Positions 32,695 through 64,000 of a stretch of 64,000 nucleotides of DNA are shown piece after piece. Each line of letters begins with the position of its first letter. Positions within the stretch are counted from its first letter, which is position 1. The stretch lies in the IMG/VR virus record IMGVR_UViG_3300037524_001600; one strand, 5' to 3'. Origin of the DNA: an uncultured virus (IMG/VR IMGVR_UViG_3300037524_001600). Taxonomy: Duplodnaviria > Heunggongvirae > Uroviricota > Caudoviricetes. The translations under genes were made by a program, and so were the position numbers. Below the pieces are notes generated by a model, which was given only the letters and a program-made list of their open reading frames with translations, was not told the DNA's origin and ran no database searches.

Positions 32695-34959
32695 TCAGCA
32701 GAAGCAGTACTCGGACTGCCGTATCAGCCCCACGTCCAGCGAGCCCACGTCGAGGCCGGAGGCGTCCGTCCGCATGTCACTGAGGAGCGCCCCGAGCGGG
32801 TCCATCTGGTATAGCTGGACGAACGTGTCTCTTATCAGCGGATACAGGGCCTGCATGTCGGCCAGCAGGCACCCGTACGAGTCGTGCACGGTGGTCACCG
32901 GGAAGTCCGCCTGGCACACGGTGAGCATCAGGTGCGCCGCGTCGAGGCTGTGTATCGCGTTGGGGCTGGCTCCTTGCGACTGTTTCCCCTTGGACGGCTT
33001 GAGTTCCTCCACGAAGCAGACCGCCAGCTGCAGCGTGTTGGAATAGTAGCCGGTGCTCAGCCTGGGGCCGGCGGGCGGCCCGTACTGCACGTACAGCTTC
33101 TTCGTGATCCCCTCTGTGTAGTGCTGCACGACCGGGAAGTGCGTCAGCGGGACCACCCAGGAGAGGAATCTGCCCTCACGCTCTGCCTCTCGGCCCGCCC
33201 GCTCCAGCTTGGCCAGCAGCTGCATCGGCCTCCTAAGGGCCTCCCGGCACGTGGTGTACACCTCCCGGCCCAGGAACGCACCCCACCTGTGCTCCATGTG
33301 GTACAGCAGCTCGATCCCGTGCTTCCTGGAGTCGTCGATGATCTGCTGCCCCAGGCCGTACGCCGTGCCCCCGTAGGGGATCGTCATGGTGTTCCTCTTG
33401 ACGATCTTCCTACGGTGGGCGGCGTCTTTTATTCGGCACCAGAACACGGGTGCGGCCATGGCCATCAGCTCCGCGTTCTCGTGCTTCAGCCGGTGGATGT
33501 CACCGGCGAGCCTGCTGCGCCTGTCGGATTTGGGCTCGCATTCGTTGATCTCCTTTTTGAGTTCCACGATATTGTCTATGAGCCGCTCGCAGGCGGCCTT
33601 CTCCTCCTCGGTCATGCCGGACACGTCCTTCTCCAACTTGGCCCAGACGTGGTCGGCGATGTACTTGTACAGATCCCCCGGAAGATCCAGCGGGACCAGG
33701 TTGACGTGCGGTGCCGTGACCTCATCCCTCGTCAGGGCCGCCAGGTGCTGGCTGCCGTTGTTCGACCCATCGATGAACACCTCGAGCCCGCTCTCGTACA
33801 TGTACTCGGCGCCTTCCGCCCAGTGCGAGGGCAGGTAGTGGCCCCTGTGCGAGGCCTGCCAGTCCCGGAATGACTTCAGCTCGAAGCACGTGGCGAGGAA
33901 CTGCCAGGGGTGGTCCGCGCGCATCCACCCCTGATTAACCTTGGGATTCTCAGCGTAGGACAGCAAGATCTCCTCGTTGTCGGCGGCCCACTCCGCCCTG
34001 TCCTTCAGCGGCAGTTTGTCAGTCTTGAGCCTGTCGATGCGGCCCGAGTCTCCCGCCCAGGAGGATGCCAGAGACACCATTAGCCAGAAGAAGCCGGACC
34101 TCCCTATCGGCTTCCTGTCGGCCCTCAGCAGCAGGCCCCTGGCCACGTCGTTGCCCTGCTCGTGCAGATAGGCGGTCGCCGGGTATTTCCTACCGCGGAA
34201 GTCGTAGTAGTACAGGTGGTAGAACACCTTGTCCACGAACCGCGAGGCTATGTCGATCACCGCCCTGGCCTCCCTCAGCTTGGTGTTCCTGGCCTCCGGA
34301 TTGGTCTGCTCCCAGATGTCGGAGAATGCCTCGACCTTATTCCTCAGGGCCCACATTTGGATATTCAGGACGTGCTCGTTTACCGTCCACCCGATGCGCT
34401 GGGCCCTGTTCAGGCACTCGAAGACCATCGGGTGGCTCTGCGGCGACAGGGCATCCAGTACGTCCTTGCTGCCCGTCTTCACCATGTTCCACCCGGTCTC
34501 GTGCCTGGAGCCGCGCCACTGCCCGTACGGCCTGATGTTCGGGAGCTTCTCGATCGAGCCGGGCTCCACGCTGTTCCAGAGCTGGCATATCCCGTCGTCA
34601 TCTAGCACCTGCACCAGGTAGGCATTGTGTCCCTTCTGGCCGTGGCCCATCACGACCTGCAGAAAGCCCAGCTCCTCAAAGGAGTACAGCAGGAAGGCGC
34701 CGGTCTTGGCCGCCAGCGACGAGTCCTTCTTCAGTCTGAACTTCCCCCTTATGGTGTGACCGATGGCACAGATCAGTTCCGTCAGGTAGATCGTGTGCCC
34801 GCCGAAGCCCTTCTTCTGGCGCGTGTAGAGGTACACCACGGATATCAGGTGGTCCGTGTACTCCCTGACGTCATGTCGGAGGAGGTACTTTAGAGGATTC
34901 TGCGGAGATATCTCCGTCCTCAGCCTTGCTCGGATGCTTTCCACCAGAATTTCTCTCAT
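32695..34959 (-). CDS. T7/T3-like single-subunit DNA-directed RNA polymerase (RNAP-2, 754 aa)
   Basis: DFRGRKY, PWQFLA, motif A DGSNNGSQH, DLY, motif B RKIVKRNTMTIPYG, PNAIHSLDA, motif C VHDS. Confidence 0.95.
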   Translation of the reverse strand: MREILVESIRARLRTEISPQNPLKYLLRHDVREYTDHLISVVYLYTRQKKGFGGHTIYLTELICAIGHTIRGKFRLKKDSSLAAKTGAFLLYSFEELGFLQVVMGHGQKGHNAYLVQVLDDDGICQLWNSVEPGSIEKLPNIRPYGQWRGSRHETGWNMVKTGSKDVLDALSPQSHPMVFECLNRAQRIGWTVNEHVLNIQMWALRNKVEAFSDIWEQTNPEARNTKLREARAVIDIASRFVDKVFYHLYYYDFRGRKYPATAYLHEQGNDVARGLLLRADRKPIGRSGFFWLMVSLASSWAGDSGRIDRLKTDKLPLKDRAEWAADNEEILLSYAENPKVNQGWMRADHPWQFLATCFELKSFRDWQASHRGHYLPSHWAEGAEYMYESGLEVFIDGSNNGSQHLAALTRDEVTAPHVNLVPLDLPGDLYKYIADHVWAKLEKDVSGMTEEEKAACERLIDNIVELKKEINECEPKSDRRSRLAGDIHRLKHENAELMAMAAPVFWCRIKDAAHRRKIVKRNTMTIPYGGTAYGLGQQIIDDSRKHGIELLYHMEHRWGAFLGREVYTTCREALRRPMQLLAKLERAGREAEREGRFLSWVVPLTHFPVVQHYTEGITKKLYVQYGPPAGPRLSTGYYSNTLQLAVCFVEELKPSKGKQSQGASPNAIHSLDAAHLMLTVCQADFPVTTVHDSYGCLLADMQALYPLIRDTFVQLYQMDPLGALLSDMRTDASGLDVGSLDVGLIRQSEYCFC

Positions 34960-35016
34960 CTAGTATCCTCGCTATTCGCGGTGCGCACATCAGTATCAGC
35001 AGCCCAAGTATCAGCT

Positions 35017-35154: not shown

Positions 35155-35174
35155 TTATCCTCTCCTATTCACGG

Positions 35175-35218
35175 AAAAAAAAAAATACGCAGAGCGGAGA
35201 CGCCCGAAGGCGTCCCCG
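35175..35218 (-). terminator. Intrinsic terminator (UUCG hairpin plus T11)
   Basis: Minus strand CGGGGACGCC TTCG GGCGTCTCCG ... T11. Confidence 0.7.
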
Positions 35219-35239
35219 ATTTGTGCAGTGATTTGAAGC

Positions 35240-36019: not shown

Positions 36020-36040
36020 GGCTATCTCCTGTGAGGGTTG

Positions 36041-36082
36041 GATAGACTTCTGTCTATCATATAAGATGGCGCCATTTGCGCG
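36041..36082 (-). promoter_or_regulatory. Class I (hairpin) putative phage promoter
   Basis: GCGCCATCTTATAT-GATAGAC AGAA GTCTATC at the junction between the late and early modules. Confidence 0.7.
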
Positions 36083-36117
36083 TTTTTTACCCCGCTCTCG
36101 GCGGGGCTTCCGGTTCC

Positions 36118-36573
36118 TCATGCCATGGTCACTGTGCCTCGGCGGTCCATCACCAGCGACTGCCTGCGGGGGGAGTCCGTGAAGCTCAGGTGGACCCAGC
36201 CGCCCGAGGGCGAGTCGGGGAACTCCAGGATCAACTGGTCGTAGATCATGTGCTCGTCGCGCAGCCTGGCCGCCACGTCGCGCGGGGAGCCGTACCTCGG
36301 CGCCACGAAGTCTACGGCGCAGCCCAGCACGTGCTGCGAGGACGGCTTACTGCCTATCCTCTCGTTGAGCTCCAGGCACCTGTACCAGCTGGTGACCAGG
36401 ACCGGGACGCCCAGCATCGTCCGGACCGTATCCATCCTAGCGGCGGTTCTCCGTATATTTTCCATCACCGCCCCGGGAGGGGGCTCGTTGTTTATTCCCA
36501 GGCGGGCCGCCGTCTGGCTCGCCACGGCCTCCCCGTACGAGAAGAATAGGGACAGCGGGTACGAGTGCTTCAC
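36118..36573 (-). CDS. Endolysin, peptidase M15A family
   Basis: SQTAARLGINN, VTSWYRC..LN..IG...SQH..G.AVD, DQLILE, WVHLS; GTG coupled to the spanin stop. Confidence 0.88.
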   Translation of the reverse strand: MKHSYPLSLFFSYGEAVASQTAARLGINNEPPPGAVMENIRRTAARMDTVRTMLGVPVLVTSWYRCLELNERIGSKPSSQHVLGCAVDFVAPRYGSPRDVAARLRDEHMIYDQLILEFPDSPSGGWVHLSFTDSPRRQSLVMDRRGTVTMA

Positions 36574-37121
36574 GGCCAGGCCTCCAGACAGGCGCGGAGC
36601 TTTATGCCTCTCACTTCCGCAGCTCCTGAAGTTTCCGCTGCCAGCTCTGCGCCTCTTCTGACCAGGTCGCCGCATCTCGAGACAAGTCCCTCGCCGTCGG
36701 CGAGTAGCTCCGCGAGTCTTCCGGCGCGAGCGACACAGGAGGAGAGGGAGTCTCCGGCGGTCGGACCTCCCGCGAATCCGGCCAGGTCGCGGCGCAGCCT
36801 GTCGCGGTCAAGGCGAATAGCACCGACGCTGCGATTGAGCGCATCTATCTCTCCCGTAAGTTTCCTAGAATCGGCCTCGGCGGCCGAGGCGCGGCCCCTG
36901 GCCGCATCCACCTCCGCCTGCATGCCGCGCTCCATCTCCCTGTACTCGGCCTGGCGCCTGCCGGCCGCCTCCGCGGCAGCCAGCAGCGCGGCCCCGTGCC
37001 GGGTCTCCCACCGGTCCCCGCAGAGCTTCCACCCGAGGAGGACCCCTGCGACGAACAGCAGCGCCGCCGCCAGCGCCTTGGCCGCCAGAGTCCCCGCCCA
37101 CACGCCCAGCTGAGCGAACAT
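36570..37121 (-). CDS. i-spanin (Rz-like)
   Basis: N-terminal TM helix, Ala-rich coiled coil, C-terminal Cys; located in the lysis cassette. Confidence 0.75.
   Translation of the reverse strand: MFAQLGVWAGTLAAKALAAALLFVAGVLLGWKLCGDRWETRHGAALLAAAEAAGRRQAEYREMERGMQAEVDAARGRASAAEADSRKLTGEIDALNRSVGAIRLDRDRLRRDLAGFAGGPTAGDSLSSCVARAGRLAELLADGEGLVSRCGDLVRRGAELAAETSGAAEVRGIKLRACLEAWP
36611..36844 (-). CDS. o-spanin lipoprotein (Rz1-like), embedded out of frame in Rz
   Basis: Signal MRSIAASVLFALTATG-C (lipobox); Pro-rich body; GGAG SD. Confidence 0.7.
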   Translation of the reverse strand: MRSIAASVLFALTATGCAATWPDSREVRPPETPSPPVSLAPEDSRSYSPTARDLSRDAATWSEEAQSWQRKLQELRK

Positions 37122-37124
37122 GCG

Positions 37125-37361
37125 TCATCTCCCCGGTCTCTGCTCGTCCCCCGCGTCCATGTTGCCCTGGCGCAGCACGCGCACGAATATGGCGACGGCC
37201 GCCACGCCGAAGGTCAAGAACGCGAAGCTGGCGGGGCCCATCGTGTCCCTGAACAGCGGCAGCGAAAGCTCCGCGGCCGACAGGATCGCCATGAACGCCA
37301 TCAGACGGACGCTCCACGCCTTCAGCAGGACGCTCTTCCATTCGGGTATAAGCTTTACCAT
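37125..37361 (-). CDS. Holin (two TM)
   Basis: MVKLIPEWKSVLLKAWSVRL...RVLRQ pattern; first gene of the lysis cassette. Confidence 0.75.
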   Translation of the reverse strand: MVKLIPEWKSVLLKAWSVRLMAFMAILSAAELSLPLFRDTMGPASFAFLTFGVAAVAIFVRVLRQGNMDAGDEQRPGR

Positions 37362-37435
37362 GAGATATCCTTGTGGGTTTGAACTAGGACAAAACACCCC
37401 GAGTGTCCCCTTAAAGGCCATTATGGCCCCTCTCC

Positions 37436-37455
37436 GGGATAATTCAACGGGGTCC
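37436..37455 (-). promoter_or_regulatory. Class II putative phage promoter
   Basis: Minus strand GGACCCCGTTGAATTATCCC upstream of the holin. Confidence 0.65.
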
Positions 37456-37610: not shown

Positions 37611-38636
37611 TCACGGGGCGAACTGGACCCCGCCGTTGGTCTTGGTGCCCAGCTCCGTCTCCTTCACCAGCCACGCGAGCTGGTCGAACTCGAACCTGTT
37701 CCCCTTGATCTCGCAGGTGCCGTTCTGGTCCATCTTGACCTCGTTGACCCTGATGTAGAACATGTCCCCCAGCGCCAGCGAGAGGCTCTCCAGCTTGACC
37801 AGATCCCCCGGCTCCAGTATCTTGTCGCGAACTATGTACCTAAGGCTGATGCCCACCGCGGACCTGCTGGTCCGCACCATCTCCTCGGCCTTGGCCCTGG
37901 CATGGTAGAAGTCGCTGCAGCCCTCCAGGAACACGGTGGTCTCCAGCGGCACCCCGTTGTCCTCGGCCAGCATCAGGTCGTATATCTCGCTGCTCTGCTC
38001 CACGTCCTGGAACGCGGAGTACGAGGTGTCCCTGGTGGTCCAGAAGGTCAGCCCGGACGGGGCTGTTATGCGGGCCGCGGCGCCCTTCCGCTCTCCCGTG
38101 TTCTGGGCCTCTATATTTATGCGGTACGTGACCCCGGCCACCAGTGTGGCGGAGAACGTGACCCTGCCGCCGGAGGTGGCGCTGGCTATCAGCACGTTGT
38201 CCACCGTGCGCCTCAGCTCCAGCGTCCCCGAGTCGTCCGTGGCGAATTCCCCGCCGAAGGAGCCGGACTCCATCGGCCTCACCAGCCACGTCAGGGAGGT
38301 GGCGGTGTCGTCCGGCCCGGTCCACACCGCCGTGCCGTTCATCAGGATCGTGTACGGGCCCGGGGCGCCGGTCCCCGGATCCACGTCCCACGTGTAGGTC
38401 GGCACGCTGTAGTCCACGCCCCCGATGCCCTTGAAGTAGGCCATCGTGGTCTTCAGCGGCCAGGCTGCCGTGTCCTCTTTGAAATTCTCCGCCTCGTTCA
38501 TGAATTTCACTATGCAGTGATTCAGGCGGTCCCCGGACGAGGGCCAGGTGACCATGACGGTCTCCCCGGCCACGATGTCGTCGTCCGTGATCGTGGCGTC
38601 CAGGAAGGGCGCGTAGTCCTCCGTCGTGTACGGCAT
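37611..38636 (-). CDS. Tail tip/central tail protein, C-terminal part
   Basis: ITDDDI..WP..DRLN..V.F.NE..FKED, AE..VRTSR, LEPGD motifs of tip-attachment (gpJ-like) proteins. Confidence 0.7.
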   Translation of the reverse strand: MPYTTEDYAPFLDATITDDDIVAGETVMVTWPSSGDRLNHCIVKFMNEAENFKEDTAAWPLKTTMAYFKGIGGVDYSVPTYTWDVDPGTGAPGPYTILMNGTAVWTGPDDTATSLTWLVRPMESGSFGGEFATDDSGTLELRRTVDNVLIASATSGGRVTFSATLVAGVTYRINIEAQNTGERKGAAARITAPSGLTFWTTRDTSYSAFQDVEQSSEIYDLMLAEDNGVPLETTVFLEGCSDFYHARAKAEEMVRTSRSAVGISLRYIVRDKILEPGDLVKLESLSLALGDMFYIRVNEVKMDQNGTCEIKGNRFEFDQLAWLVKETELGTKTNGGVQFAP

Positions 38637-38639
38637 GGC

Positions 38640-40343
38640 TCAGACCCCGTTGTAGTTCACAAGCACGGACACCTGGGACGGCGCGTAGATCGTGTTGGTG
38701 GCCACGTGCTTCAGATAGATGTTGAAGTTGAACACGTAATTGTAGCCGGACGGCGGCGCCGGGGTGTTGCTGAGCCACATCGAGAATATCCGCTCCGTGG
38801 ACAGTGTGTACCACGTGCCTACGGCGTTCGAGCTGCTCCAGAAGCTCGGCAGCTGCAGCGCGTTCGAGAAGTTGTCGTACCACTCCTCGATCAGCTCGAA
38901 CTTCACCTGGTACCCGTTGCCGACGCCGGCCTCTGCCGCCCCGCTGAGCCACGAGCCGCTGCTGACGGTCGCGAGGTCCGACGCGTCCCAGTTGAGAGCC
39001 TTCTGCACCTGGAACGAGCCGTCGGCCTGGAATCTGATGGCGACGTGCCACCAGTGGGACGGATCCGAGTACGGGTATACCAGACTGTACGCGCCGCCCG
39101 GATACTCCACGGTCCGATCCGGGGGCGTCACGTCCGTGCCGGCCCCTCCGCCGCCGCCGGGCGGGGTCGTCTCGTCCTCCCCGTCCGGATACACCACGGG
39201 GACCTTCTCCAGAAGCGGGTACTTCACGGACAGCTTGTACCTGCCCTGGGACCATACCAGGCGGGCGTCCCCCATCGTGGTCAGCATCGCCTCCACGTTC
39301 TCCCGCATGGGCTTGGATGGGTCCACGACCATGTTGCACTCGTACAGGGGCAGGTCCCTGCTCTCCACGTTCCTGGTCCCGTCGGTGTTGCGGTATATCT
39401 TGCCCACGGTCAGCACGTTCTGCCTTACGATCTGCCCGCACACCCTGGCCGCGTCGTAGAAGCTGGACAGGTTGATCTCCGCCACCGAGCACCGCTTCCC
39501 CGGGTCGAACGCCCTCACGGTGTCCGTCCCGTTGTCGTAGGATAGCTCGCTGGCCGTAAGGTAGTCCAGCAGGCACAGCGCCGGGTTGTTGGAGTACACG
39601 CGGGTGTCCGACAGTTTGTACCATTTCTGCTTCAGCCTGTCCCACTGCGCCCCGTCGACCTGCGCTGCGTACTCCACCACGAAGCGCACCCTGCGCCCCT
39701 CGATCAGATACTGGACCTGCGGGACCATGCTGAACTGCGGGTCCTCCCTGTTCAGCCGAATCACCGTCGTGGCGTAGGCCATTCCGGGAAACTTCGCCGT
39801 GGCCCTGGAAGAGAAATTCGCCACCGCGGTCGAGTTGGCCTGCGGCGCCAGAACCCCCGGGCCGGACTGCTGGCCGAACATCACCTCCGTCCGGAAGGCG
39901 GCCCGCTGGTCCGGCGGCTGATCGTAGTTCAGGGAGCTGTCCAGGGCGTAGTCGTTGATCCACTTGGACTCCTCGACCACCATGTCGTAGCAGGCGTGTA
40001 TGGGGCCGTGGCACAGAACCTGCTGAAAGAACAGGAACCTGTTGGTGTTCCCGAGCTGCGTGGACGTCAGCTCCCCGGACACGAAGCCCCTGTTCGAGTT
40101 CAGGGAGGCGGCCTGGTAGTAGTTGCTGCTGGTCGCGTGCCAGACGCGTACGCCGCCGATCTTCACCCTGCCGTACGCCAGCGGGATCGGCTTCATCTCG
40201 CCCTCGACCACCAGCTCGAACCCCTTTCTGGCTTCGGCGGCCTCCTTCGCAGCCTTCCGCATCTTCTTCGCCTGCACCACCTGGTAGGCGACGGCGGCGG
40301 CGACAATCGCGTAGTAGGCAATCACGAGAGGCAGCGGAAACAT
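38640..40343 (-). CDS. Tail tip/central tail protein, N-terminal part
   Basis: IPLAYGRVKIGG, LCHGPI, YSNNPALCLLDYL, YECN motifs. Confidence 0.78.
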   Translation of the reverse strand: MFPLPLVIAYYAIVAAAVAYQVVQAKKMRKAAKEAAEARKGFELVVEGEMKPIPLAYGRVKIGGVRVWHATSSNYYQAASLNSNRGFVSGELTSTQLGNTNRFLFFQQVLCHGPIHACYDMVVEESKWINDYALDSSLNYDQPPDQRAAFRTEVMFGQQSGPGVLAPQANSTAVANFSSRATAKFPGMAYATTVIRLNREDPQFSMVPQVQYLIEGRRVRFVVEYAAQVDGAQWDRLKQKWYKLSDTRVYSNNPALCLLDYLTASELSYDNGTDTVRAFDPGKRCSVAEINLSSFYDAARVCGQIVRQNVLTVGKIYRNTDGTRNVESRDLPLYECNMVVDPSKPMRENVEAMLTTMGDARLVWSQGRYKLSVKYPLLEKVPVVYPDGEDETTPPGGGGGAGTDVTPPDRTVEYPGGAYSLVYPYSDPSHWWHVAIRFQADGSFQVQKALNWDASDLATVSSGSWLSGAAEAGVGNGYQVKFELIEEWYDNFSNALQLPSFWSSSNAVGTWYTLSTERIFSMWLSNTPAPPSGYNYVFNFNIYLKHVATNTIYAPSQVSVLVNYNGV

Positions 40344-40346
40344 CTT

Positions 40347-40931
40347 TTACCCCGTCTTCTTTCCCCAGAGAAACTCGGCCTTCCCGGACCCCTCGTAGAC
40401 GTGCTCGAAGGAGGTGTCGGATGGATCTATATTACGTATCTCGGTCTTGGAGGTGAACAGCTGCGTTATGCCGTCCAGATCGGCCATCGGGCTGGCGCAG
40501 GCCACCACGGCGCGCACCTCCCCGGCCTCGGCCGTGTCTACCTCGTAGGAGAAGCTGTCGGCCTTGCCCTTGTACAGCAGTATCAGCTCCTCCTCCGCCG
40601 CGCTGACTAGCGGCGTGCCGGCGTCCGTGACGCCCATGTACACCTCCACGTCCTTCCCGACGATGTTGCCGAATACCGACACCATCGCGTAGCCCGGATC
40701 GGCGAGGACCACCCTGTAGATCTCCCTGTCAACGGACGTGGAGATGTGCGGGGGATCCAGCGAGACGATGCGGCCGTCGTGCGTGAACAGGCGCTCCGTG
40801 GGCAGCCCCGGGTCCACGATCAGCGATCTAAAGTAGTTGGTGGCCCTGTAGTCCCCCACCCGCAGGAGGAAGAAGACCTCGTAGTGGTCGGAGGCCAGTA
40901 TATCCAGTACGGATTGGGCTATGCTTATCAT
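40347..40931 (-). CDS. Minor tail/hub protein (DUF2163-like)
   Basis: YKG..D, CASPMADLD, DPSDTSF..V...LWGK; position before the tip gene. Confidence 0.65.
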   Translation of the reverse strand: MISIAQSVLDILASDHYEVFFLLRVGDYRATNYFRSLIVDPGLPTERLFTHDGRIVSLDPPHISTSVDREIYRVVLADPGYAMVSVFGNIVGKDVEVYMGVTDAGTPLVSAAEEELILLYKGKADSFSYEVDTAEAGEVRAVVACASPMADLDGITQLFTSKTEIRNIDPSDTSFEHVYEGSGKAEFLWGKKTG

Positions 40932-41554
40932 GGCAGCTCGTACACGATCTTGGGGACCCGCTCCACCATGCGGATGGCCCCGTTGTCCATCAGGATGCCG
41001 TCCACGTAGGACATGCCGATCACGCTGTCTCCGTCCAGAAACACCTCCATCCTCACGTCGTCCCTGTAGACTATCGCCTGGTTTATCACATCGGTCATCA
41101 GCGGCGGGAACACCTCGATGACCTGCTCTCCCTGCGCCGCCTCCACGTCGTGCGTCAGCATGTACACCTTGGTGTGATTTGCGAAGCGCAGGAACGTTCC
41201 CATGGGTATCAGACCGGTGACCTCGCTTATCTTCAGGCTGCTGTCCCCCGCGTAGCCCAGCACGGCCGTCAAGGTGTCCTCCGCGGTCCTGGCCATCAGG
41301 ACTCCGTAGTTCTGCGGCACCATTATCTGGAAGGACGAGGTGACGCCCTTCTCCACGAGGAACGCGAACAGGTCGTTCGCCTCCCTGTACAGCGGCTCCA
41401 CGTTCGTTTCCATCTCCCAGCGTTGCGGCGGACGCCGCGCCGCGTACCTGCTGAGAGACATAGAGTCCGACAGGTACACCGGCGTGTTGCTCCTGACAGT
41501 CATCGGGGCCACGAACCTGGCCAGCACGTCGTCGCCCCTCAGTATCCCGTACAC
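40928..41554 (-). CDS. Distal tail protein-like, paralog 1 (no C-terminal extension)
   Basis: YGIL..FVAP...SDS.SL...QRWE, GTFLRFANHTKVY, FPPL, DGILMD. Confidence 0.65.
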   Translation of the reverse strand: MYGILRGDDVLARFVAPMTVRSNTPVYLSDSMSLSRYAARRPPQRWEMETNVEPLYREANDLFAFLVEKGVTSSFQIMVPQNYGVLMARTAEDTLTAVLGYAGDSSLKISEVTGLIPMGTFLRFANHTKVYMLTHDVEAAQGEQVIEVFPPLMTDVINQAIVYRDDVRMEVFLDGDSVIGMSYVDGILMDNGAIRMVERVPKIVYELP

Positions 41555-41564
41555 GGCGCCTCCG

Positions 41565-44219: not shown

Positions 44220-44220
44220 C

Positions 44221-56100: not shown

Positions 56101-56172
56101 ATCGCTGACCTTATTGAGCTCGCGCGCAGAGTCGTGCGTTCTGGCGTTTACATCGATCAGGATACCGGACAT
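47173..56172 (-). CDS. Tape measure protein (2999 aa)
   Basis: N-terminal tape-measure domain (QLGQGLSAGALRGEEL); helical/TM-rich middle; C-terminal FASGG..GPGTPTSDSIPAMLSDGEFVVNA. Confidence 0.92.
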   Translation of the reverse strand: MSGILIDVNARTHDSARELNKVSDSVKNIETSTNKAAAALAALGKTIGSAFIAGGTYAVLKSVNQEFTSIQNRLSLITKDLEDLGRVEKRLAGIARDTRTSVGDTVDVYYKLSTALSRAGVSERRLMQATQALNQSIAISGGSAESASRAIIQLGQGLSAGALRGEELASVMEQMPRFAQLLAEELDISVGQLRTVAEQGKLTSDFIFTSLINNADKLGAEFAKFTPTLQQLEGALSSAFRTYVYNLDKGLGLTRGISAGVGDLTVKMRLAAESAEDLGGSIRTKVVGGIASIKSVGGPVLDFLGTLGEKVKLAVPGFFVTNTLRGETREYIRLLDDSLGGALTIIRNFRLSYLWTIESTTEKAVRAFRRLLPANWIASGGFDRQTFERIFSRKYLDAFLAVFSRFTQGLSEDSRAIRVNIATLDRDIGIVWRRMLRYFGLIPDTLVAVKTGLLSPIYGSINNILQGLTDTGVRLYEIGRLFTEIFGPALAALILTTYKVVFKLPGLLLQLVNATLAIIETMLNRLKLILEEAFGSAEILTAAAWLLKDMKGQFLDLAFTLGFTMKANRTFFDTFVDTINAGTKRVLRSLGLLKESSLLDFDFSGISRSVRRFTRDFIGYFRDLYDEVIGHSWWTDTVEGIKSGVEDVEEYFRDFGSVVRDASKVFIPLFAASGLLGGMFRQLKAGLRDLPKTGRLFALALLPLQVGLKSALGLLGQLSMAVLVFGTLIPAAFAGMYFLHKFFPDMEKLAREKLASAADYVERFAERVIGYFEDIYEDVIGGSWWTDTIDSVKSDSKSLWNSVAPDFMRFKTGVSDVFAEIYRKAKSGRLSLDVIGLKDVRRVDVGELVQTQPVVKAVVDVFQKIRAVAQKVFETFPSLLQVSLQGAGLVLVNSLFEPGLIRASLSAALGGAMLPHLAVIGERLGLALFGESLLEVAAKKAGKFVALVISNIGTELPEIINALGAFFSGLGRGLLENLPLSVGKVFQSIFQVLDKYTGLSGPLGIFGAFLFGKTIKDFFKVTKGAKGGVEGLFETLQKFMSSRGKNWGAIGEFLYGGPGPVRIVAGLTSIASALGAFDSVLSKAPFTKLMLDTASLFLLLTGNRGLDKITSLFAENVTLPLKNLLTDQAKKFLAGPSLAPLFDALFGGDPSQSVSTRAIKFGQAAIDVFIKKSIEAATSLGGTFGGKLMQLIFGPEWIKTLDMVGSRARGLWKNTFRGFKEAAKDVRSGFGRMLADMSFLFNRGVGTNLVSSVTSALDKINSRVTAMSARAGPHGLLGNLLLGKNAKWLLGGALLGGLALLSTAALAKGGQGSLGDRDILFEGFNERVSALRSQETATETWLRKTKWLFQDFLDYALYVFAAVEVAWSLATRRLFGFSRTLIAGLLAAVAFLRKAVPALLSTLAEKAAAVLAGKGILGGLLYSLAALRGTLAGAVAGLLASALGADAIWSTVAGVIVGALVQSISGEMVVALKDVLLKTIPSTFRLLGNAFKQLAEDIAARFALAMAGKGVLGSLARAFVSARGPLTGLVVGFMASVFGADEVWSVVAGVVASMLAQALPGAIFKGIFGALGRILLAIASFVFSFKALLLGGIGLVALLLFGKDNPIETLKDIWAWVGKITGLWKTAPKNPLGMSEAAYQANEQLSLGVGYDLSRVNLGKIGAEEKKQFEEKRKELEETILKAKKEDYFEGAVTEATRQEILNQNRAFNKFVEKLAQRGAKDFNEITQEISNGFRKLERVSLVQRFLSGQFEEKPLQRLYKRDIEVLRDLQSKARDSGNKDMVRFYQQEINRINAAFLNKSYSAEYRPLSSQESRIDELIKKARVVKTEDPEIIEEVTRALQRYQAVQTEINKQAVNWKGFYDPSKVDPQLLQTYDLYSSAAEAALNRLVEFDRRAREASAFAKDIAEIQNRLQQGGISLDTKELFVSGSPDLDRIREISREVERLSKRLKQVRSAEERNEILIKLAISRENIEKIAEDAKRILRSSLSNLELSFSAIGADFGKNTVAAVNRAGLAAETERIARDIATLNELQLEAVDKAVGKIREKNLVVQVPELNVWNSLDLQSAVTEGKLDDLIAAKSRELDRAVTGAFSGREGVSLGVRDIATRLGFTVPANILLRKTQAEIDALNGQIMELNDLTSKTKFGDATGPQIVRMEELRLSIQDALEPARTLSDMMSDLSSGGFSFTLEDMVKLGDGTLEDLRKLSTELYTVNKLMSRENSKNLSFDELRALAERQKKALRELRAEYEKTLNNTPSKVLNNAREVVGDSYRSMLRIGESDLRKLSELGASRQRTLSRTDDRGLTATVRDMARIERQFERAKTLVMSSVEDIAGLISNVFETQIPERALLEISPRLRGAMTAAAKYFDLVMKDIKASDVFTEDQMRSVFQRLDRISAGFRLQGILANYRADLERMTYEGARAGFERVSSVIKDLQLEFEDYVGLSAKQRAFFQKQAAAIKTIGDVFESGLLNVTDELESDPLGLARVKEMRALLADATMSPVEVLERLGPLFEDHFRRSLESLNESPEAKQIMAMENLTDAVKHLEDAFRGVSRGPAPAVGYIASPAAPGVPSETAGVDDATIQRSITARTEALRGAVASGVESVYDAFDAARLKLAKVGVSLDPEVLYASTDAQLALLSSYADEIDAKVRAIRFDKTLPEETRRLYATQAEALRFGLSDLVESLDSGRKNFLGAGRRFVEGIEGSIKQSFADLFRARKQDESIGIFRNFLNTVMDGVTNAIIDQFIDGFIQGIKETAGKGLVEAAGKEIFSAGAGLVKGVFGLFSGAGAPGGEAMGTGAAPGEAEGSVDQTGALAPILTAISGFFSTMVFGQTAQTATAQAQLAATTASTGLITSAIYSSTSMIVGAILSLQATTAVAGVFASGGPVSGPGTPTSDSIPAMLSDGEFVVNAAQTKRFLPLLTAINAGSIRGFSDGGMVTRRGEAVRPVQSGGSRASPVIVNLNITGDVSRQTRMEVMQMLPRIAEGVNVHNKEKGYKP

Positions 56173-57444: not shown

Positions 57445-58029
57445 TTACGCCGCCGTGTACGCGCCGAAGAACGACGACTGCAGCGAGATCGTCAAAGTCG
57501 CCGTGTTGGCGTCAGTGAGCTGCGGGTTGACCAGCAGCGCCTCGATCTTGCCGACCCAGTAGTAGTACGTGTTCTCGTTCGCGGGGGTGCCGGCGGTGCC
57601 GCCCTTAGCCGTGCCGAGCCCCGCTACGGCCGATCCGTACGCCGCCGGCTCCGAGTTCAGCAGCGCGAAGCGGAACGCCTTCTGCTTGCCGTCGCCGACC
57701 ATCGAGCCCAGCACGGTACCACTGGCCCATGCGGACGGGATGTAGTTGATGGTGATTTCCATCGTGGGCGCGTCCGCCTGTCCCTGAATCTGCTGCGAGG
57801 TCTTCTGGCCGTACGTCGGGACGTTCACGATGTTCGGCGGGGTGCCCATCGCCGGGAACTCGCGGACGTTCTTGATGCGGCTGAACGTTCCCACGGCCGG
57901 CGTGTCCGTCTCCGTGACGAACAGCGCATCGAACTCGGCCTGAGTGTCGAGCCCCGTGAGCGACGTGGTGTGGTTGTGAACGGCGAGGTCCGAGAACATG
58001 CCCGCGCCGATCGAGGTGATGTGTGCCAT
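57445..58029 (-). CDS. Major tail (tube) protein
   Basis: VREFPAMGTPPNIVNVPTYG..QIQGQADAP; strong codon bias; position. Confidence 0.85.
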   Translation of the reverse strand: MAHITSIGAGMFSDLAVHNHTTSLTGLDTQAEFDALFVTETDTPAVGTFSRIKNVREFPAMGTPPNIVNVPTYGQKTSQQIQGQADAPTMEITINYIPSAWASGTVLGSMVGDGKQKAFRFALLNSEPAAYGSAVAGLGTAKGGTAGTPANENTYYYWVGKIEALLVNPQLTDANTATLTISLQSSFFGAYTAA

Positions 58030-59268: not shown

Positions 59269-59277
59269 CGCCTTTCC

Positions 59278-60486
59278 TCAGCCGTGGAAGACCGGGAGGA
59301 TTCCCAGAGACAGCGCCGAGTTGGACTTGCGCACCCAGGTGCCGGTCGCGTTCGCGATCGTGGTGACGTCCGTGATGGCCTTGGCCGTGCCGCTCTCCAC
59401 CGCGTAGCCGTACTCGGCGTCCGAGGGGAACTTGTCGGCGCTGCCCGCCCAGTTGTACCCGGCCGGCGCGAGGATGTAGCCCCAGCGGTACCAGACCGTG
59501 GTCGTGCCGCCGCCCCTGTAGGCCCCGGCGTTGCGGTCGATCTCGACGGGCTCGGGCATCACCAGAGGCACCATCGCCAGCGCGCCGGGCAGCACGATGA
59601 ACGAGGTCTTCGTGCCGACGATGTCCACGCCCGCCCCGGTGTTCACCTTGGTCAGGTCGGCCGTGGCCATGCCCTGCGCGGCGCGGGTCTGCAGCAACCG
59701 GAACTTGCCCTGGAAGATCGTCGGGAAGTCGAGGTTGCCGTCGCGGACGCGGTCGCTGTCGACCAGGTTGGCCGAGCGCAGCGACGCGAGGACCTCGGGA
59801 CTAGTGACCAGATACGCCCACTCGGGCTCGTGGTCCTTGTACGCCTTCCCGAAGGCCTCCAGGAATCCCTCGGCGCGCTGGGCTCCGACGTAGGCCGCGT
59901 TGGCCGTGGTGCCGTCCGCCTGGTACCCCACCTTGTTGATGAGGCGGGACGCGCCCATGTCCACGTAGAAGCCGTACTTCTTGTCCGTGGGATCGTTGGT
60001 GAAGGTCTGACCGCCCAGACCGGTTCCGCCGCCGGCCGACGCTGCGCCGTTCAGCGCCTCCGCCAGCGCGACACCCTTCAGCACCGCCAGGATCGCGTTG
60101 TGCTCGTCCTGGGTGCGGTGCTCCACGAAGTCCCGGGAGATCTTCGCCAGCCCGTCCTTCTGCGTCACCAGCTGCTGCAGATTGACCTTCGTGCCGCCAT
60201 AGGTGCGGGCGGTCTTGACGTACGTCAGGTAGTCCGAGGCGTACGTTGAGGTCGTTCCCGCGGTGCTGTCCGTCAAGGACGCGACGTTGATCGTCGGGTT
60301 CATCGGCTTGAACCAGCGGAGCTGACCGACGTAGGTCTCGGTGTCGCGGTTCACGTTCGGGTTGTCGCTGACGATGCCTGTGCCCGAGAGCTTCTTGGCA
60401 TTCGTGTATGCTTCATCGGTGTAAGCGCCGATCGCCTCCTGGAGGACGAAATTCGTGGCGCCGCCGACGTCGGTGCGAGCGGTCAT
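59278..60486 (-). CDS. Major capsid protein
   Basis: 402 aa with strong codon bias; AAAGGA SD; between scaffold and adaptor; WYRWGY..PAGY.W motif. Confidence 0.85.
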   Translation of the reverse strand: MTARTDVGGATNFVLQEAIGAYTDEAYTNAKKLSGTGIVSDNPNVNRDTETYVGQLRWFKPMNPTINVASLTDSTAGTTSTYASDYLTYVKTARTYGGTKVNLQQLVTQKDGLAKISRDFVEHRTQDEHNAILAVLKGVALAEALNGAASAGGGTGLGGQTFTNDPTDKKYGFYVDMGASRLINKVGYQADGTTANAAYVGAQRAEGFLEAFGKAYKDHEPEWAYLVTSPEVLASLRSANLVDSDRVRDGNLDFPTIFQGKFRLLQTRAAQGMATADLTKVNTGAGVDIVGTKTSFIVLPGALAMVPLVMPEPVEIDRNAGAYRGGGTTTVWYRWGYILAPAGYNWAGSADKFPSDAEYGYAVESGTAKAITDVTTIANATGTWVRKSNSALSLGILPVFHG

Positions 60487-60509
60487 TCTGGTGTTTCCTT
60501 TAGGTTAGG

Positions 60510-61175
60510 TCATGTGGGCGCACGCCTTAGCTGCCCGGCGGCGGCGCGTCGTAGTACTTCGTCCTGCGGTAGAGCGAATAGCGAAGAGCTGGATCCGGAC
60601 GTATCGGGCGGCAAAGAGTCCCCGGCCGAGCCCGTTCCGGTAGATGTTTTGGATTTGAACAGAAAGGAGTTGTTCTCGTCCTCGGCGAAAGTCTTGATGA
60701 AGTCAGGCACGCTGACGCCGGATTTGTGCACCCACTCGCCCTGCTCGTTCTTGACGAGTAATGCCGTTATCTCCTTGAAGGCCATGTCGAACGACCTCGC
60801 GTTTCTGAAGGGCAGAGCCTGCATCGCGCCCTTCACGGTGATGTCCCGCGTAAGCTCGATGTTCCTCTGCTCCAGCTCCTGCCTTGCCGCGCGCTCGGCC
60901 GCCAGCTCCTGCTCGAAGGCCTCGCGATGCTTCCCCTCATCTTTCAGCCGCTGGACCTCGGCCGCGCGCAGATCCGCCTCGTACTTGGCCAGCTTCTTGA
61001 TGGCCTCGTCCCGGGCTGCGTACGCCTTGTCCAGATTCGCCTTTATCGGCGCCAGCTGCGCTTCCACGAGTTTCTGGAGGCGATCCTGCGAAGGGTCGCC
61101 TCCGGTATTCTCGCTCGAGCTCTCAGCGGACGATTCCGCCGCCGATTCTTCCGGTTTGCTCTCTGTATCGCTCAT
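60510..61175 (-). CDS. Capsid scaffold protein
   Basis: Acidic N-terminus, coiled coil, FLFK..S.G.G C-terminal motif; directly before the MCP. Confidence 0.78.
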   Translation of the reverse strand: MSDTESKPEESAAESSAESSSENTGGDPSQDRLQKLVEAQLAPIKANLDKAYAARDEAIKKLAKYEADLRAAEVQRLKDEGKHREAFEQELAAERAARQELEQRNIELTRDITVKGAMQALPFRNARSFDMAFKEITALLVKNEQGEWVHKSGVSVPDFIKTFAEDENNSFLFKSKTSTGTGSAGDSLPPDTSGSSSSLFALPQDEVLRRAAAGQLRRAPT

Positions 61176-61270
61176 CTGTATTCCTCTGAGTACAACTCGA
61201 TGTGACCGACGGCACAGCCGCGGCCGGCTTGTTTCCAAGGCACAGTCTGTTTTTGTGCAGACTCTCGCCT

Positions 61271-61290
61271 GGGTTAATTCAACGGGGTGC
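61271..61290 (-). promoter_or_regulatory. Class II putative phage promoter
   Basis: Minus strand GCACCCCGTTGAATTAACCC upstream of scaffold/MCP. Confidence 0.65.
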
Positions 61291-61292
61291 GA

Positions 61293-64000
61293 TCAGTTGA
61301 CTCCATACCACCCGAAATTCTCGAAGAAGTCGTCGGGAATTTCCCTGAGCACATCTTCCCTCGTCAAAATGTCCGAATCTTTCATCAGTTTCCCCCCGAT
61401 TCTGGACTTGCCGGGGACCGGTATCAGGCCCAGTTCTATGGCCTCTTCCAGATACGCGTCGTATTTGGCCTTCGGCAGCCCCCTCGCCCTCATCTCGTCC
61501 AGAGTCAGCCTTATGACGTTTCTATCCATAGCCCTGGCATATATTTCCCGCAGGGCCGCCCGGGCCTTGATCATGTCGGCCGCGTTGGTGAAGAAAGCGT
61601 CGTGCACCGTGGACGTCTGCACGCCGCTGCCCCGGCCCCACAGATGGAACCGTTTGACCAGCACCGCGTCGTTGGAGTGATTGCCGTTCACCGCGAACGC
61701 CGTGCGGGCCTTGGTTGTGTCGGCGATGTCGTTGATCTTGCCCGACTTGTTGATGGCCTGCTCCCACCAAGTGGCCTCCGTCTTCTGCGGCACCTGTAGG
61801 ATGTTCTTTATCCAGTTGCCGGCCTCGTCGCGGTAATTCAGCCGCTCCTCGAAGGACTGCGTGAAATGCTGCTCCAGCACTTTCCCGTCGAAATTGACCC
61901 AGGGCACGTTAGTCCAGCTCTTCGGGAGCTTGTTGGCATACAGGACCGGCACGCCGTCGAATCCGACCTCGCGGCCCAGCGCCCTCTTCTCGAAGTCGGG
62001 TATCGGTACGGGAAAGTCGAATTTGAGATAGGTGGCCCCGGTGCGCCTGGTCTCCGGAAGCTCCACGCCGTAAACTATGTCCCTCAGAGTGCCCTGCGGG
62101 TTCCAGAAGGCGAGCCGCTTGAGCAGCTTCTCGCTTACCGGCTCACCCGCCTTCAGGCCCAGCATCTCGCTGAGCCTGTCGGGCAGAACGTACCCCTTCT
62201 TCCTGGTGCCGAGCACGGCTATCTTTCCGATGGACTCCCAGTCGAATGCGGCCTGCGACGGCTTGGCCTCGTTCAGGAACTCCTCGGCCAGTCTTCCAAG
62301 GAACCGCGTGAAATTCTTCAGCACAGGGACCTGCTCCTGCAGGTGCTCGCTCATTATGGCCGCTATCTGCTTGAAGTCGTCCGGCGTCACGACGCGATCG
62401 TACGCGGAGGACATTTTGTCGACCAGGTCGCGCGTCTTGGAGTCCAGAAACCAGAGCTCCTCCATGATGTCCTCGCCGGGGCTCACGCCCCTGTCGAAGA
62501 TGTCCTTGACATTCTTACGCAGCTGGGAGAGCTCCTCGTACAGCTCTGGGTCCAGCTTCTCGTACCTGGCCATCCTGGCCGATATCTCCGCCAGCACCGT
62601 GTCCCTGTCCGACGTCTTCACGACGAGAGTTCCCGTGTCCTTCTCCAGGACCTTCGACAGCTTCCCCTCGACGTTCAGGGTGCCGGTGCGCTCCCCTGCG
62701 CCGTACAGAGTGACCATGTTCTGCGCCTTGGCGGCCTTCCGCAGGTCTTTCTCCGTCAGGCCCAGCCGCTCGTTCATGCGTCTGAACCTCGGATCGTTGT
62801 ACGTGGCCGCCGCGATCTCGTCGTACAGGCGCTTCTTATAGGACGTGGGCACCACGTTGCTCAGCTCCGCCAGCTGCTTGTTCCGCGTGGTGAGGGCTAT
62901 TATCTGCGCGCCGGAGGACGAGGCATCCTGCTCCAGGGCCAGCGCGGTCCTATAGCCGGACAGCGTCTCAAGGGCGCCCTTGGTGTAGTCCCCCCTGAGA
63001 AAGTTGTCCAGTTTGGCCGTCTCCATGGCCAGACGGAAGAACTTACCCAGCTCCTCCCCATCCACTCGGGCCACCAGATCGGAGTCCAGCACGGCGCGTA
63101 TGTCGTTGGGCTTTCCCCTGAGCATGTGATTTCCCAGGCGGACCAGCTCCGGCCTCCATCTCTCGGCGATCTTCTGCCTCCCCGTGAAGGTCAGCGAGTC
63201 GTGCCTCCCCTCGAAGTAATCGCTCAGCCCGCCGAGAAAAGAGCCCACCTGGTCCTGGAAGTTTCGGAAGTCCCTCGGGCTGAACGCCTTCGCCTCCGCC
63301 GTGTTCAGGAACGGTCTGAACGTCTCGCCCGCCTGCGGGCCGACCAGCCCGCGCTCGTAGATGCGCGCCCTGTGGTCCAGGAACGGCATGCTGGAGAACT
63401 TCTTGTCGCCGTCCACGAGCCATTCCATCGCCTTGAAGCGCTCGTAAGAGTCCCCGCGGGAGGCGATGTACTTCCGGTACGTGTTCAGGTCCTCGTACCT
63501 CTGCGCCGCGCCCCTGTCGTCCCGGAAGTATAGGAGCTTTCTCACGAAATCGTAGTAATCGCGGTCCACGCGGAACTCCGCCCTCGCGGCCCAGTTCAGG
63601 GCGTCCGCCATCTCCCGGTCGACGGCGGACTCGGGAAACTCCGAGAAGCTGGAGGAGGACACGATCGGGATACGGGTGTCCTCCAGGCCCAGAACACCTC
63701 TGTCCATGAAGTATGTCTTGTATCCGGGGCGCACTATGAGCCTGTTCTTCGGGTCCACGATGTTCACGCGCAGGCCCAGCTCCACCCGCCTGGACAGCGC
63801 CGCGTATTCCAGCAGCCGCTTGTCCCTGAGCTCCACGTAGTACGACAGCGTGTCGTAGTACGGACCGAAGTACTTGCCGCTCATTCTGCTCTTCATCCTG
63901 CGCTTCTGCACGCCGAAGGTCCCGAGCGAGAACAGCTTGTCCATCTTCTTGGCCTCCATCAGACGGAGACCCAGATTGAACCACTGATTCCTTGACCCGT
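61293..64000 (-). CDS. Large T7-like single-subunit RNA polymerase (RNAP-1), N-terminus beyond the window; candidate virion RNAP
   Basis: DHRARIY, motif A QDASSSGAQ, motif B RKAAKAQNMVTLYG, VNGNHSNDA, motif C VHDAF; the frame stays open from 63959 to the window edge. Confidence 0.88.
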   Translation of the reverse strand, partial: GSRNQWFNLGLRLMEAKKMDKLFSLGTFGVQKRRMKSRMSGKYFGPYYDTLSYYVELRDKRLLEYAALSRRVELGLRVNIVDPKNRLIVRPGYKTYFMDRGVLGLEDTRIPIVSSSSFSEFPESAVDREMADALNWAARAEFRVDRDYYDFVRKLLYFRDDRGAAQRYEDLNTYRKYIASRGDSYERFKAMEWLVDGDKKFSSMPFLDHRARIYERGLVGPQAGETFRPFLNTAEAKAFSPRDFRNFQDQVGSFLGGLSDYFEGRHDSLTFTGRQKIAERWRPELVRLGNHMLRGKPNDIRAVLDSDLVARVDGEELGKFFRLAMETAKLDNFLRGDYTKGALETLSGYRTALALEQDASSSGAQIIALTTRNKQLAELSNVVPTSYKKRLYDEIAAATYNDPRFRRMNERLGLTEKDLRKAAKAQNMVTLYGAGERTGTLNVEGKLSKVLEKDTGTLVVKTSDRDTVLAEISARMARYEKLDPELYEELSQLRKNVKDIFDRGVSPGEDIMEELWFLDSKTRDLVDKMSSAYDRVVTPDDFKQIAAIMSEHLQEQVPVLKNFTRFLGRLAEEFLNEAKPSQAAFDWESIGKIAVLGTRKKGYVLPDRLSEMLGLKAGEPVSEKLLKRLAFWNPQGTLRDIVYGVELPETRRTGATYLKFDFPVPIPDFEKRALGREVGFDGVPVLYANKLPKSWTNVPWVNFDGKVLEQHFTQSFEERLNYRDEAGNWIKNILQVPQKTEATWWEQAINKSGKINDIADTTKARTAFAVNGNHSNDAVLVKRFHLWGRGSGVQTSTVHDAFFTNAADMIKARAALREIYARAMDRNVIRLTLDEMRARGLPKAKYDAYLEEAIELGLIPVPGKSRIGGKLMKDSDILTREDVLREIPDDFFENFGWYGVN

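Follow-up and report, generated by a model that had tools for sequence, protein, structure and literature searches.

A MuF–T7-type RNA polymerase fusion and a candidate two-polymerase transcription relay in an uncultured siphophage

Introduction

Why should a long-tailed phage encode two T7-like RNA polymerases (RNAPs), one of them embedded in its head gene module? The question is raised by IMG/VR record IMGVR_UViG_3300037524_001600, a stretch of 64,000 nt from an uncultured member of the Caudoviricetes (hereafter the window), which covers most of the phage genome and carries all of its convincing genes on the (-) strand, to which every feature coordinate given below refers. The larger enzyme, RNAP-1, is encoded at 61293..64000 and is open at its 5′ edge, and the smaller, free enzyme, RNAP-2, is encoded at 32695..34959. 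The source is a virulent siphophage of roughly 74 kb from a large, mostly uncultured clade, the nearest cultured relatives being the Naomviridae roseophages DSS3_VP1 and DSS3_PM1. We place the probability at roughly 0.6 that the two enzymes constitute an N4-like relay, one that combines a T7-type polymerase with a MuF anchor and operates in a phage whose non-contractile tail is very long.

Architecture and distribution of RNAP-1

The reading frame of RNAP-1 could be followed beyond the window on IMG/VR contig L003, which is identical to it over 12705/12705 overlapping bases and runs 10 kb further. The full open reading frame (ORF; L003:8045-12706) encodes 1553 aa, the first 652 of which, including a MuF domain, lie outside the window, with the C-terminal 901 aa inside it; the ATG at 63959 is thereby ruled out as the RNAP-1 start. 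Pfam identifies two domains only in the complete protein, namely MuF (PF04233, Phage_Mu_F) at aa 142-249 (E 2e-14, 54.7 bits; cut-off 29.6) and, near the C-terminus, RNA_pol (PF00940; E 2.2e-11, 43.7 bits; curated cut-off 22). RNAP-1 also matches phrog_414 'RNA polymerase' (E 5.3e-19), and the polymerase accounts for roughly the last 1000 aa, or two thirds of the protein.

Whether this N-terminus is a head-morphogenesis or minor capsid fusion was a question posed alongside the original prediction, and both the PF04233 match and fold comparisons answer that it is. A structural model of the first 560 aa, with a predicted local distance difference test score (pLDDT) of 71.6, returned nothing from the PDB at E <= 0.001 by Foldseek; from BFVD it returned 31 matches at E <= 0.001, headed by a 1463-aa phage protein and followed by head-morphogenesis proteins, minor capsid proteins and MuF–ADP-ribosyltransferase fusions, including those of Xanthomonas phage Xp12 and Microbacterium phage Percival. 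Seven residues of the MuF signature (C222, R225, P239, P240, H242, C245 and R246) are invariant in an alignment of 31 full-length fusions that are 52-70% identical to the window protein.

The genomic context is likewise that of a head protein. The fusion begins with an ATG at L003:8045 that overlaps the stop codon of the portal gene upstream (L003:6507-8048; phrog_145 E 3e-65; DUF4055), and the next genes downstream of the fusion encode the head scaffolding protein (60510..61238; phrog_206 E 2e-6) and then the major capsid protein (MCP; 59278..60486; phrog_247 E 3.8e-18), in agreement with the earlier claim that RNAP-1 sits directly upstream of both. In DSS3_VP1 the portal gene is followed by those for MuF-RNAP, a 248-aa hypothetical protein and the coat protein.

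With the 901-aa fragment as query, IMG/VR yielded at least 420 related stretches; 80 were retained for analysis. Among 45 IMG/VR loci inspected, 5 are cut at the 5′ end and all 40 complete ones contain the fusion ORF (1493-1574 aa). Among 50,697 deposited phage records, relatives of RNAP-1 occur only in EBPR siphovirus 1 (64% identity) and in DSS3_VP1 and DSS3_PM1 (35%); the same MuF and RNA_pol architecture is present in EBPR siphovirus 1 and in DSS3_VP1 (1463 aa), and the homologues in deposited records are labelled 'head protein' or 'minor head protein-like protein'. In a set of 185,579 bacterial and archaeal species, represented by one genome each, only two contigs carried the fusion (L104 and L105), both from one metagenome bin; no prophage copies were seen among these genomes, and no host assignment could be drawn from them. 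One of the two contigs is 74 kb long and resembles a binned phage genome.

Catalytic residues and predicted fold of RNAP-1

The original prediction of two T7-like polymerases is borne out for both genes, each of which scores above the PF00940 cut-off, and complete sets of motifs A, B and C could be lined up with the T7 record for both enzymes, with their window coordinates confirmed by translation. In RNAP-1, motif A reads QDASSSGAQ (62904..62930), with D1010 corresponding to T7 D537 and invariant in 31/31 fusions. Motif B, RKAAKAQNMVTLYG (62700..62741), supplies R1072, K1076, Y1084 and G1085 as counterparts of T7 R627, K631, Y639 and G640. The sequence NGNHSND1423 (61668..61688) places H1426 opposite T7 H784 (T7 motif NFVHSQD781), and motif C provides H1451-D1452 (61599..61604) for T7 H811-D812. 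The two divergent motifs noted earlier for this enzyme, DASSSGAQ and NGNHSND, thus translate exactly at the positions given here. R1072, K1076, Y1084, G1085, H1426, H1451 and D1452 are, like D1010, invariant across all 31 fusions. Upstream, DHRAR860 (63363..63377) is the counterpart of T7 DWRGR421 (T/DxxGR motif), with Gly replaced by Ala, and its D860, R862 and R864 are invariant in the 31.

The last 1100 aa were modelled with AlphaFold2 on the 31-sequence alignment, with a mean pLDDT of 77.9 and a predicted template modelling score of 0.73. Foldseek searches with this model place T7 RNAP and the mitochondrial RNAPs on top (E 8e-18). Structural alignment with VIA-align gives Z 25.1 for T7 RNAP (8dh5_M; root-mean-square deviation 4.7 A over 543 aa, model residues 113-1099 on T7 33-882), Z 24.4 for yeast mitochondrial RNAP and Z 22.7 for POLRMT, with Z 14.7 for N4 mini-vRNAP (the virion RNAP, vRNAP; 3c2p_A) and Z 13.5 for N4 RNAPII. 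At the level of sequence the family is remote from anything in the PDB: its profile reaches T7 RNAP, N4 RNAPII and POLRMT only at E ~0.05, the top match being an unrelated archaeal regulator, and no gp50 chain is among the matches of that search. Comparison with N4 mini-vRNAP by hhalign gave a probability of 2%, with motif B alone aligned. The better fold match to T7 and mitochondrial RNAPs, together with the lack of sequence likeness to N4, sets RNAP-1 outside the N4 vRNAP family; it is a T7/mitochondrial-type enzyme, with a complete N-terminal domain in the model. From its conserved residues and predicted fold, RNAP-1 is probably active.

Several relatives carry interruptions in this gene. 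The EBPR siphovirus 1 homologue (L002 21270-22150) is split inside motif B, where its frame runs ...RKAAKAQNMV to a stop and picks up at ...GILNVEGKL beyond an HNH/NUMOD1 endonuclease gene. By match span, five IMG/VR relatives (L041, L054, L055, L072 and L079) have 0.5-1 kb extra within the RNAP-1 gene.

Association of RNAP-1 with the virion

Cysteine content separates the proteins of this phage that act in the cytoplasm from those of the virion, and the fusion sides with the latter. It has 2 Cys in all, both in the MuF part, and none in the next 1300 aa; no Cys follows the MuF part in 29/31 relatives. Counts for cytoplasmic enzymes are 13 (RNAP-2), 9 (DNA polymerase I), 9 (primase-helicase) and 15 (ribonucleotide reductase), and those for virion proteins are 0 (MCP), 0 in 2999 aa (tape measure) and 1 (scaffold). 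Because it combines a MuF domain, coupling to the portal gene and a Cys-free composition like that of virion proteins, RNAP-1 is probably carried in the capsid. The available text of PMC5576092 describes the studied MuF protein, SPP1 gp7, as portal-bound and present at one or two copies per capsid, and that of PMC5512222 treats MuF fusions as thought to deliver effectors along with the DNA.

RNAP-2, the free polymerase

RNAP-2 is a T7-type single-subunit enzyme of 754 aa, shorter, as had been noted, than the 883 aa of T7 RNAP. Its membership of the family is clear-cut, with E 5.8e-64 and 217 bits against PF00940 (curated cut-off 22) and phmmer matches to T7 RNAP and POLRMT among PDB sequences at E ~1e-40. 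The motifs comprise DFRGR253, D397 (in DGSNNGSQH), R517/K521/Y529/G530, NAIHSLD667 and H692-D693. Homologues are present in 4/4 near-complete relatives searched, and DSS3_VP1 and DSS3_PM1 also encode a free RNAP, 34% identical to RNAP-2. RNAP-1 and RNAP-2 can be aligned only in the surroundings of motifs A and C, and a recent duplication as the origin of the pair is rejected on this ground.

Two classes of promoter-like motif

Repeat finding and reading of intergenic regions yielded two motifs, M1 and M2, both on the coding strand. They were followed in a five-genome set composed of the window phage and four near-complete relatives (68.5-76.9 kb), whose GC content is 37-48% versus 62% for the window; both are kept across this range of 37-62%. 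In these five genomes the M1 core (an 11-mer, <=1 mismatch) has 14 occurrences on the coding strand versus 0 on the other, and M2 has 25 versus 1; the shuffle means per genome are <=0.14 for M2 and, for the AT-rich M1 core, 0.09-2.07.

The full M1 consensus of ~30 nt consists of TGCG, about 10 nt and then ATCTTATATGA; in the window it reads GCGCCATCTTATATGATAG and is followed by a hairpin of 7-9 bp. The window holds 3 copies, versus 0.02 expected, all intergenic and all with a Shine-Dalgarno sequence and start codon shortly downstream. One copy, which together with its hairpin reads GCGCCATCTTATATGATAGACAGAAGTCTATC (36041..36075; hairpin -8.2 kcal/mol, z -3.6), lies 1.1 kb upstream of RNAP-2 and is separated by ~20 nt (36020..36040, with AGGAG) from an ATG at 36019. 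The others are a variant at 17093..17127, with small genes of unassigned function downstream, and a copy at 12209..12243. The hairpins range from -8.2 to -11.9 kcal/mol (z -2.6 to -3.6), and their stems show compensatory changes among copies and genomes.

The consensus of M2 is (A/C)CCCGTTRAATTAACCC. It is found past the RNAP-1 stop, ahead of the scaffold gene (CACCCCGTTGAATTAACC, 61272..61289), before the holin and lysis cassette (37437..37454), ~30 nt before the gene for a Gp2.5-like single-stranded DNA-binding protein (SSB; 31613..31630) and before the first gene of the left end, 19176..19739 (19805..19822). A weaker M2-like site, TCCCCCGTTATTTTAACC (13566..13583), stands ~18 nt (13548..13565, with GGAGGGAGAG) before an ATG at 13547. 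Across the related loci, M2 follows the RNAP-1 gene on the coding strand in 60/80; of the remaining 20, 8 are cut off short of the stop codon and another 7 have a diverged GTTnnATTAA. Neither motif was found in DSS3_VP1, where a k-mer look gave nothing promoter-like.

A site in one relative, G002, bears on where an M1 transcript would begin. At 59486 its Shine-Dalgarno sequence, AAGGAG, lies 2 nt after TATATGA, which points to a start at about that G, as in T7-type promoters, and not at sigma-70 distance. With a start near the M1 G, the hairpin would form the 5′ end of the RNA and would not be an N4-style DNA hairpin upstream of the start; since the G002 Shine-Dalgarno sequence directly follows the conserved block, an N4-style hairpin promoter was set aside for M1. 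As for M2, it shares the octamer ATTAACCC with the promoters of T3 and is without their conserved initiation region. The octamer offers a lead, not proof, that M2 may belong to the T7-like RNAP-2. A sigma-70 scan of 30500-38000 gave 3 sites versus 1.3 expected; the sole (-) site overlaps M2, and the M1 copy at 36070 was not flagged.

Genome layout and RNA contigs

Reading on the (-) strand from 64000 downward, the gene order is RNAP-1, scaffold, MCP, major tail protein, tape measure, tail tip and fibre, holin and endolysin, small ORFs, RNAP-2, the replication block and small genes. A landmark map made by tblastn over the five genomes shows M2 directly after the RNAP-1 stop, ahead of scaffold and capsid, and again ahead of the lysis region, in 5/5. 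Between the lysis cassette and RNAP-2 there are one to three copies of M1, also in 5/5. In 4/5 genomes M2 is found 45-60 nt ahead of the SSB gene, and in 4/5 it precedes the left-end gene, about 50-125 nt upstream. M1 is thus never ahead of structural genes and always ahead of RNAP-2, the gene of which is the end of an M1-headed unit, with M2-headed replication genes following; M2 heads every large module.

The physical ends were placed by comparison with G003, the one relative that bears 127-bp terminal repeats, in which the left-end gene with M2 is the first gene past the repeat. Window positions 21316-20369 match the right end of G003 and 19736-19263 its left end. This synteny puts the physical genome end at ~19.8-20.3 kb, the window being a permuted read-through of the terminus. 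The small genes below 19.7 kb accordingly form the left arm, presumably the early one.

A terminator-like hairpin with a T11 run (35175..35222) lies between the M1 unit and RNAP-2. Coding-strand hairpins with long T runs (6 to 17 T) are seen at ~35175-35222, 18860-18890, 11680-11720, 7035-7070 and 113-150, and are likely terminators dividing the genome into units.

RNA data came from four wetland metatranscriptome runs, taken as contigs at >=99% identity; such contigs cannot show transcription starts, and libraries of this kind can hold DNA. The region 19100-19795 is covered in 4/4 runs, the longest contig ending 9 nt after the CCC of M2. Over 35244-36047, the longest contig ends inside the M1 hairpin, with the other boundary near the T-run terminator. 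Parts of RNAP-2 are covered in 3/4 runs. Large parts of 19800-35000 have little or no contig cover in the four runs, gaps that are not informative in such data. The contigs agree with M1 and M2 as starts and lend this weak support.

A proposed transcription relay and its alternatives

In the relay that we favour, the fusion would be made late, together with the head proteins. Its MuF domain would dock it at the portal, so that each capsid encloses a few copies, which would exit along with the DNA in the manner proposed for other MuF–effector fusions. In the new cell, RNAP-1 would begin transcription at M1 (TGCG-N10-ATCTTATATGA), starting near the G and producing RNA that opens with a hairpin. 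Such promoters would front small genes of unassigned function and, in 5/5 genomes, RNAP-2, which would then read M2 (CCCGTTRAATTAACCC) to express the left-end gene, the SSB and replication genes, the scaffold–capsid–tail block and the lysis cassette. The assignment of M1 to the packaged enzyme and M2 to RNAP-2 is favoured because M1 always fronts RNAP-2 and never structural genes, and because M2 heads the large modules. The original prediction had already proposed a packaged RNAP-1 that leads to RNAP-2. To that cascade are now added the MuF domain and portal neighbourhood, the absence of Cys, invariant catalytic residues, an RNAP-2 homologue in 4/4 relatives and two motif classes laid out as a relay would need them; the cascade finds support in each computational test that it could be put to, and its packaging, ejection and host independence are what we infer.

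Several observations weigh against this relay. In G003 the left end has M2, and M1 occurs only near RNAP-2, so the first-entering DNA need not carry the supposed vRNAP promoter. The hairpin and T11 run fall between the M1 at 36070 and the start of RNAP-2, whose expression from M1 would need read-through. M1 can be read in AT-rich relatives as a sigma-70-like TTGCGG-N16-TATGAT, and RNAP-1 has DHRAR where the family motif is T/DxxGR. A 170-kDa protein would also need to travel through a tail whose size is set by a 2999-aa tape measure, and if SPP1 gp7, at 1-2 copies per capsid in the available text of PMC5576092, is a guide, very few polymerase molecules would arrive.

The position of M2 at the left end invites the opposite assignment, under which the packaged MuF-RNAP would read M2, including its left-end copy, which lies a few hundred bases in and would enter the cell first, and RNAP-2 would read M1 and drive the block from its own gene into replication. 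Early promoters near the left end serve the first-acting polymerase in T7 and N4, and the left-end M2 resembles them in lying 656 nt from the end of G003 defined by its direct terminal repeats, and in preceding the left-end gene by about 50-125 nt in 4/5 genomes, with the left region of G003 being without M1. Left-end position is, however, no mark of an early promoter, given that T3 phiOL, a phage-RNAP promoter, is found at 366-388 from the left end. Swapping the motifs would, moreover, leave RNAP-2 with 1-4 promoters only, mostly upstream of itself, would require a few injected molecules to drive capsid-level expression, and would hand ATTAACCC, which M2 shares with T3 promoters, to RNAP-1 when RNAP-2 is by far the more T7/T3-like enzyme. 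We regard the swap as unlikely. Equally improbable, in our estimation, is a T7-like scheme in which host RNAP reads M1 as a sigma-70-type promoter to make an M2-reading RNAP-2, the MuF-RNAP serving instead for replication priming, DNA pulling or late transcription before packaging. T7 and T3 do express their RNAP from host promoters (as the T3 annotation records), and M1 in G002, G003 and G005 reads TTGCGG/TTGCGC-N16-TATGAT/TATGAA. Despite this, a contiguous 13-mer with an upstream TGCG, kept at 37-62% GC, is more than host hexamers need; the window copies have CGCGC instead of TTG, and the one at 36070 escaped the sigma-70 scan. Transcription starting at sigma-70 distance would deprive the G002 site at 59486 of its Shine-Dalgarno sequence, and no third conserved motif was found for the MuF-RNAP to use.

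That RNAP-1 is a structural remnant, either a head protein with an inactive polymerase-like fold or one that is not ejected, we hold to be very improbable. Its high divergence (the profile reaching PDB sequences only at E ~0.05), the Gly to Ala change in the T/DxxGR motif and the annotation of its homologues in public records only as head proteins would fit such a role, but the metal- and nucleoside triphosphate-binding residues are all invariant in 31/31 and a full T7-like fold, N-terminal domain included, is predicted. Homing-endonuclease insertions are usual at essential conserved sites, and in relatives of RNAP-1 they target motif B.

Other features of the window

Of the remaining structural genes, the major tail protein is encoded at 57445..58029 and the tape measure protein (2999 aa; PF20155 E 9.2e-50) at 47173..56172. 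At 0.15 nm per tape-measure residue, the general rule for tail length, the tail would be ~450 nm long. The tail tip and fibre genes span 37611..47176, within which a two-gene cassette at 42155-47176 is tandemly duplicated with a repeat spacing of 2957 nt. This region contains three phrog_4176 'tail fiber' paralogues (42155-43174, 44221-45156 and 45153-46145) and two further tail-tip paralogues (43167-44219 and 46142-47176), each of the latter with three internal 84-87-nt repeats. Lysis is represented by a holin (37125..37421) and an endolysin (36118..36675).

The replication block runs from 31583 down to 21336 and comprises the SSB (31098..31583; phrog_112), DNA polymerase I, exonuclease, primase-helicase, ribonucleotide reductase and ligase. 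Between the primase-helicase and exonuclease genes lies one for a SegE-like GIY-YIG homing endonuclease (26297-26806; PF19835 E 5.6e-16). The ~20 kb below the block hold small genes for which family matches are mostly absent.

Some of this arm may specify non-coding RNA. One such RNA may be a stretch of ~500 nt (~11690-12190) without a convincing ORF. It comes after a short ORF that the M1 copy at 12238 precedes, contains many inverted repeats and closes with a hairpin and T-run. Within a gene-free stretch that holds tRNA-like pieces, 10121-10237 gives a sub-threshold match to Y RNA-like YrlA (RF02553; 42.8 bits versus a gathering score of 69, E 1.4e-7) and may be a phage-encoded Y-like RNA. 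The sole tRNA found in the window by ARAGORN and Rfam is a tRNA-Met (CAT) at 16181-16257.

Comparison with known systems

The proposed order of events is that of N4 (Schitoviridae), in which the virion RNAP gp50 is succeeded by RNAPII (gp15/gp16) and then by host RNAP; here a capsid-borne RNAP and then a second phage RNAP are proposed, and in both cases the gene for the virion enzyme lies among late genes. The parts are different. N4 gp50 is ~3500 aa long, has no MuF domain and belongs to a podovirus, whereas the siphophage enzyme is a 1553-aa MuF fusion. The N4 vRNAP uses DNA-hairpin promoters, whilst the M1 hairpin is downstream of the inferred start, and N4 RNAPII has two subunits whereas RNAP-2 is one chain. 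According to the available text of PMC5512222, gp50 is a polyvalent protein with a C-terminal zincin-like peptidase region, unlike the fusion with its MuF and RNA_pol domains only, and N4-like virion RNAPs occur only in N4-like phages. As RNAP-1 is unrelated by sequence to the N4 vRNAP, the likeness to N4 appears to be functional and not by descent.

RNAP-2, by its E of 1e-40 to T7 RNAP, aligns the phage with T7 and T3 (Autographiviridae), where phage promoters are likewise placed close to the left end and immediately ahead of a gp2.5-like SSB; in the T3 record these are phiOL, 366-388 nt from the left end, and a promoter 32 nt before the gp2.5 SSB. The T3 layout is similar to that of the window phage, with host promoters and T3 promoters in place of M1 and M2. 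T7 and T3 differ in being podoviruses with one RNAP, made by host RNAP.

With the MuF minor head proteins (SPP1 gp7/Mu gpF) the fusion shares an N-terminal MuF domain beside the portal gene and a C-terminal enzymatic cargo; it differs from the described MuF effector fusions (ADP-ribosyltransferase, toxin; Jamet 2017, Iyer 2017) in that the cargo is a complete RNA polymerase. The enzymes of phiKZ-like and AR9/PBS2 phages, which are jumbo myoviruses, are multisubunit and beta/beta'-like. These phages share a two-polymerase logic with a packaged early enzyme (as set out in the available text of PMC10612078), executed there by multisubunit enzymes and here by T7-type single chains.

Literature searches turned up no description of a MuF-RNAP fusion, most subscription journals being outside their reach. 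The word 'polymerase' is absent from PMC5576092 in its available text, and RNA polymerase is not mentioned in the main text of the Naomviridae paper (PMC8323127) or in that of the dU-enzyme paper (PMC12697855). With regard to the latter subject, neither a dCTP deaminase/dCMP-deaminase-family Dcd nor an HD-family Dtm (dTMP phosphatase) of the dU-DNA pathway was detected by Pfam among 61 window ORFs, the ~10 kb of genome outside the window having been only partly scanned; the dU-DNA chemistry of DSS3_VP1 and DSS3_PM1 is not evident in the genes of the window phage. The phage would pursue an N4-like strategy with different, probably independent parts, a design without description in the literature searched.

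Implications

Tentatively, and at somewhat less than even odds, the whole clade (at least 420 IMG/VR loci and the cultured Naomviridae) may run its entire programme without host RNAP, a capsid MuF-RNAP reading M1 to make an M2-reading RNAP-2. As the clade is widespread and has cultured members, the hypothesis is directly testable at the bench. If it is true, the two enzymes and their motifs would form a natural pair of short orthogonal single-subunit polymerase–promoter systems, with possible use in synthetic biology, and MuF would be seen to carry not only toxins but a polymerase-bearing cargo of roughly 1200 aa (aa ~340-1553). The 'minor head protein' of the cultured, globally distributed roseophages DSS3_VP1 and DSS3_PM1 would need a new annotation. 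Three groups, the N4-like podophages, the phiKZ/AR9-like jumbo phages and the crAss-like phages, are known to have virion-borne RNAPs. A T7-type RNAP carried by MuF would be a fourth and apparently independent solution, the first in long-tailed siphophages, and would give the virion RNAP an origin independent of N4.

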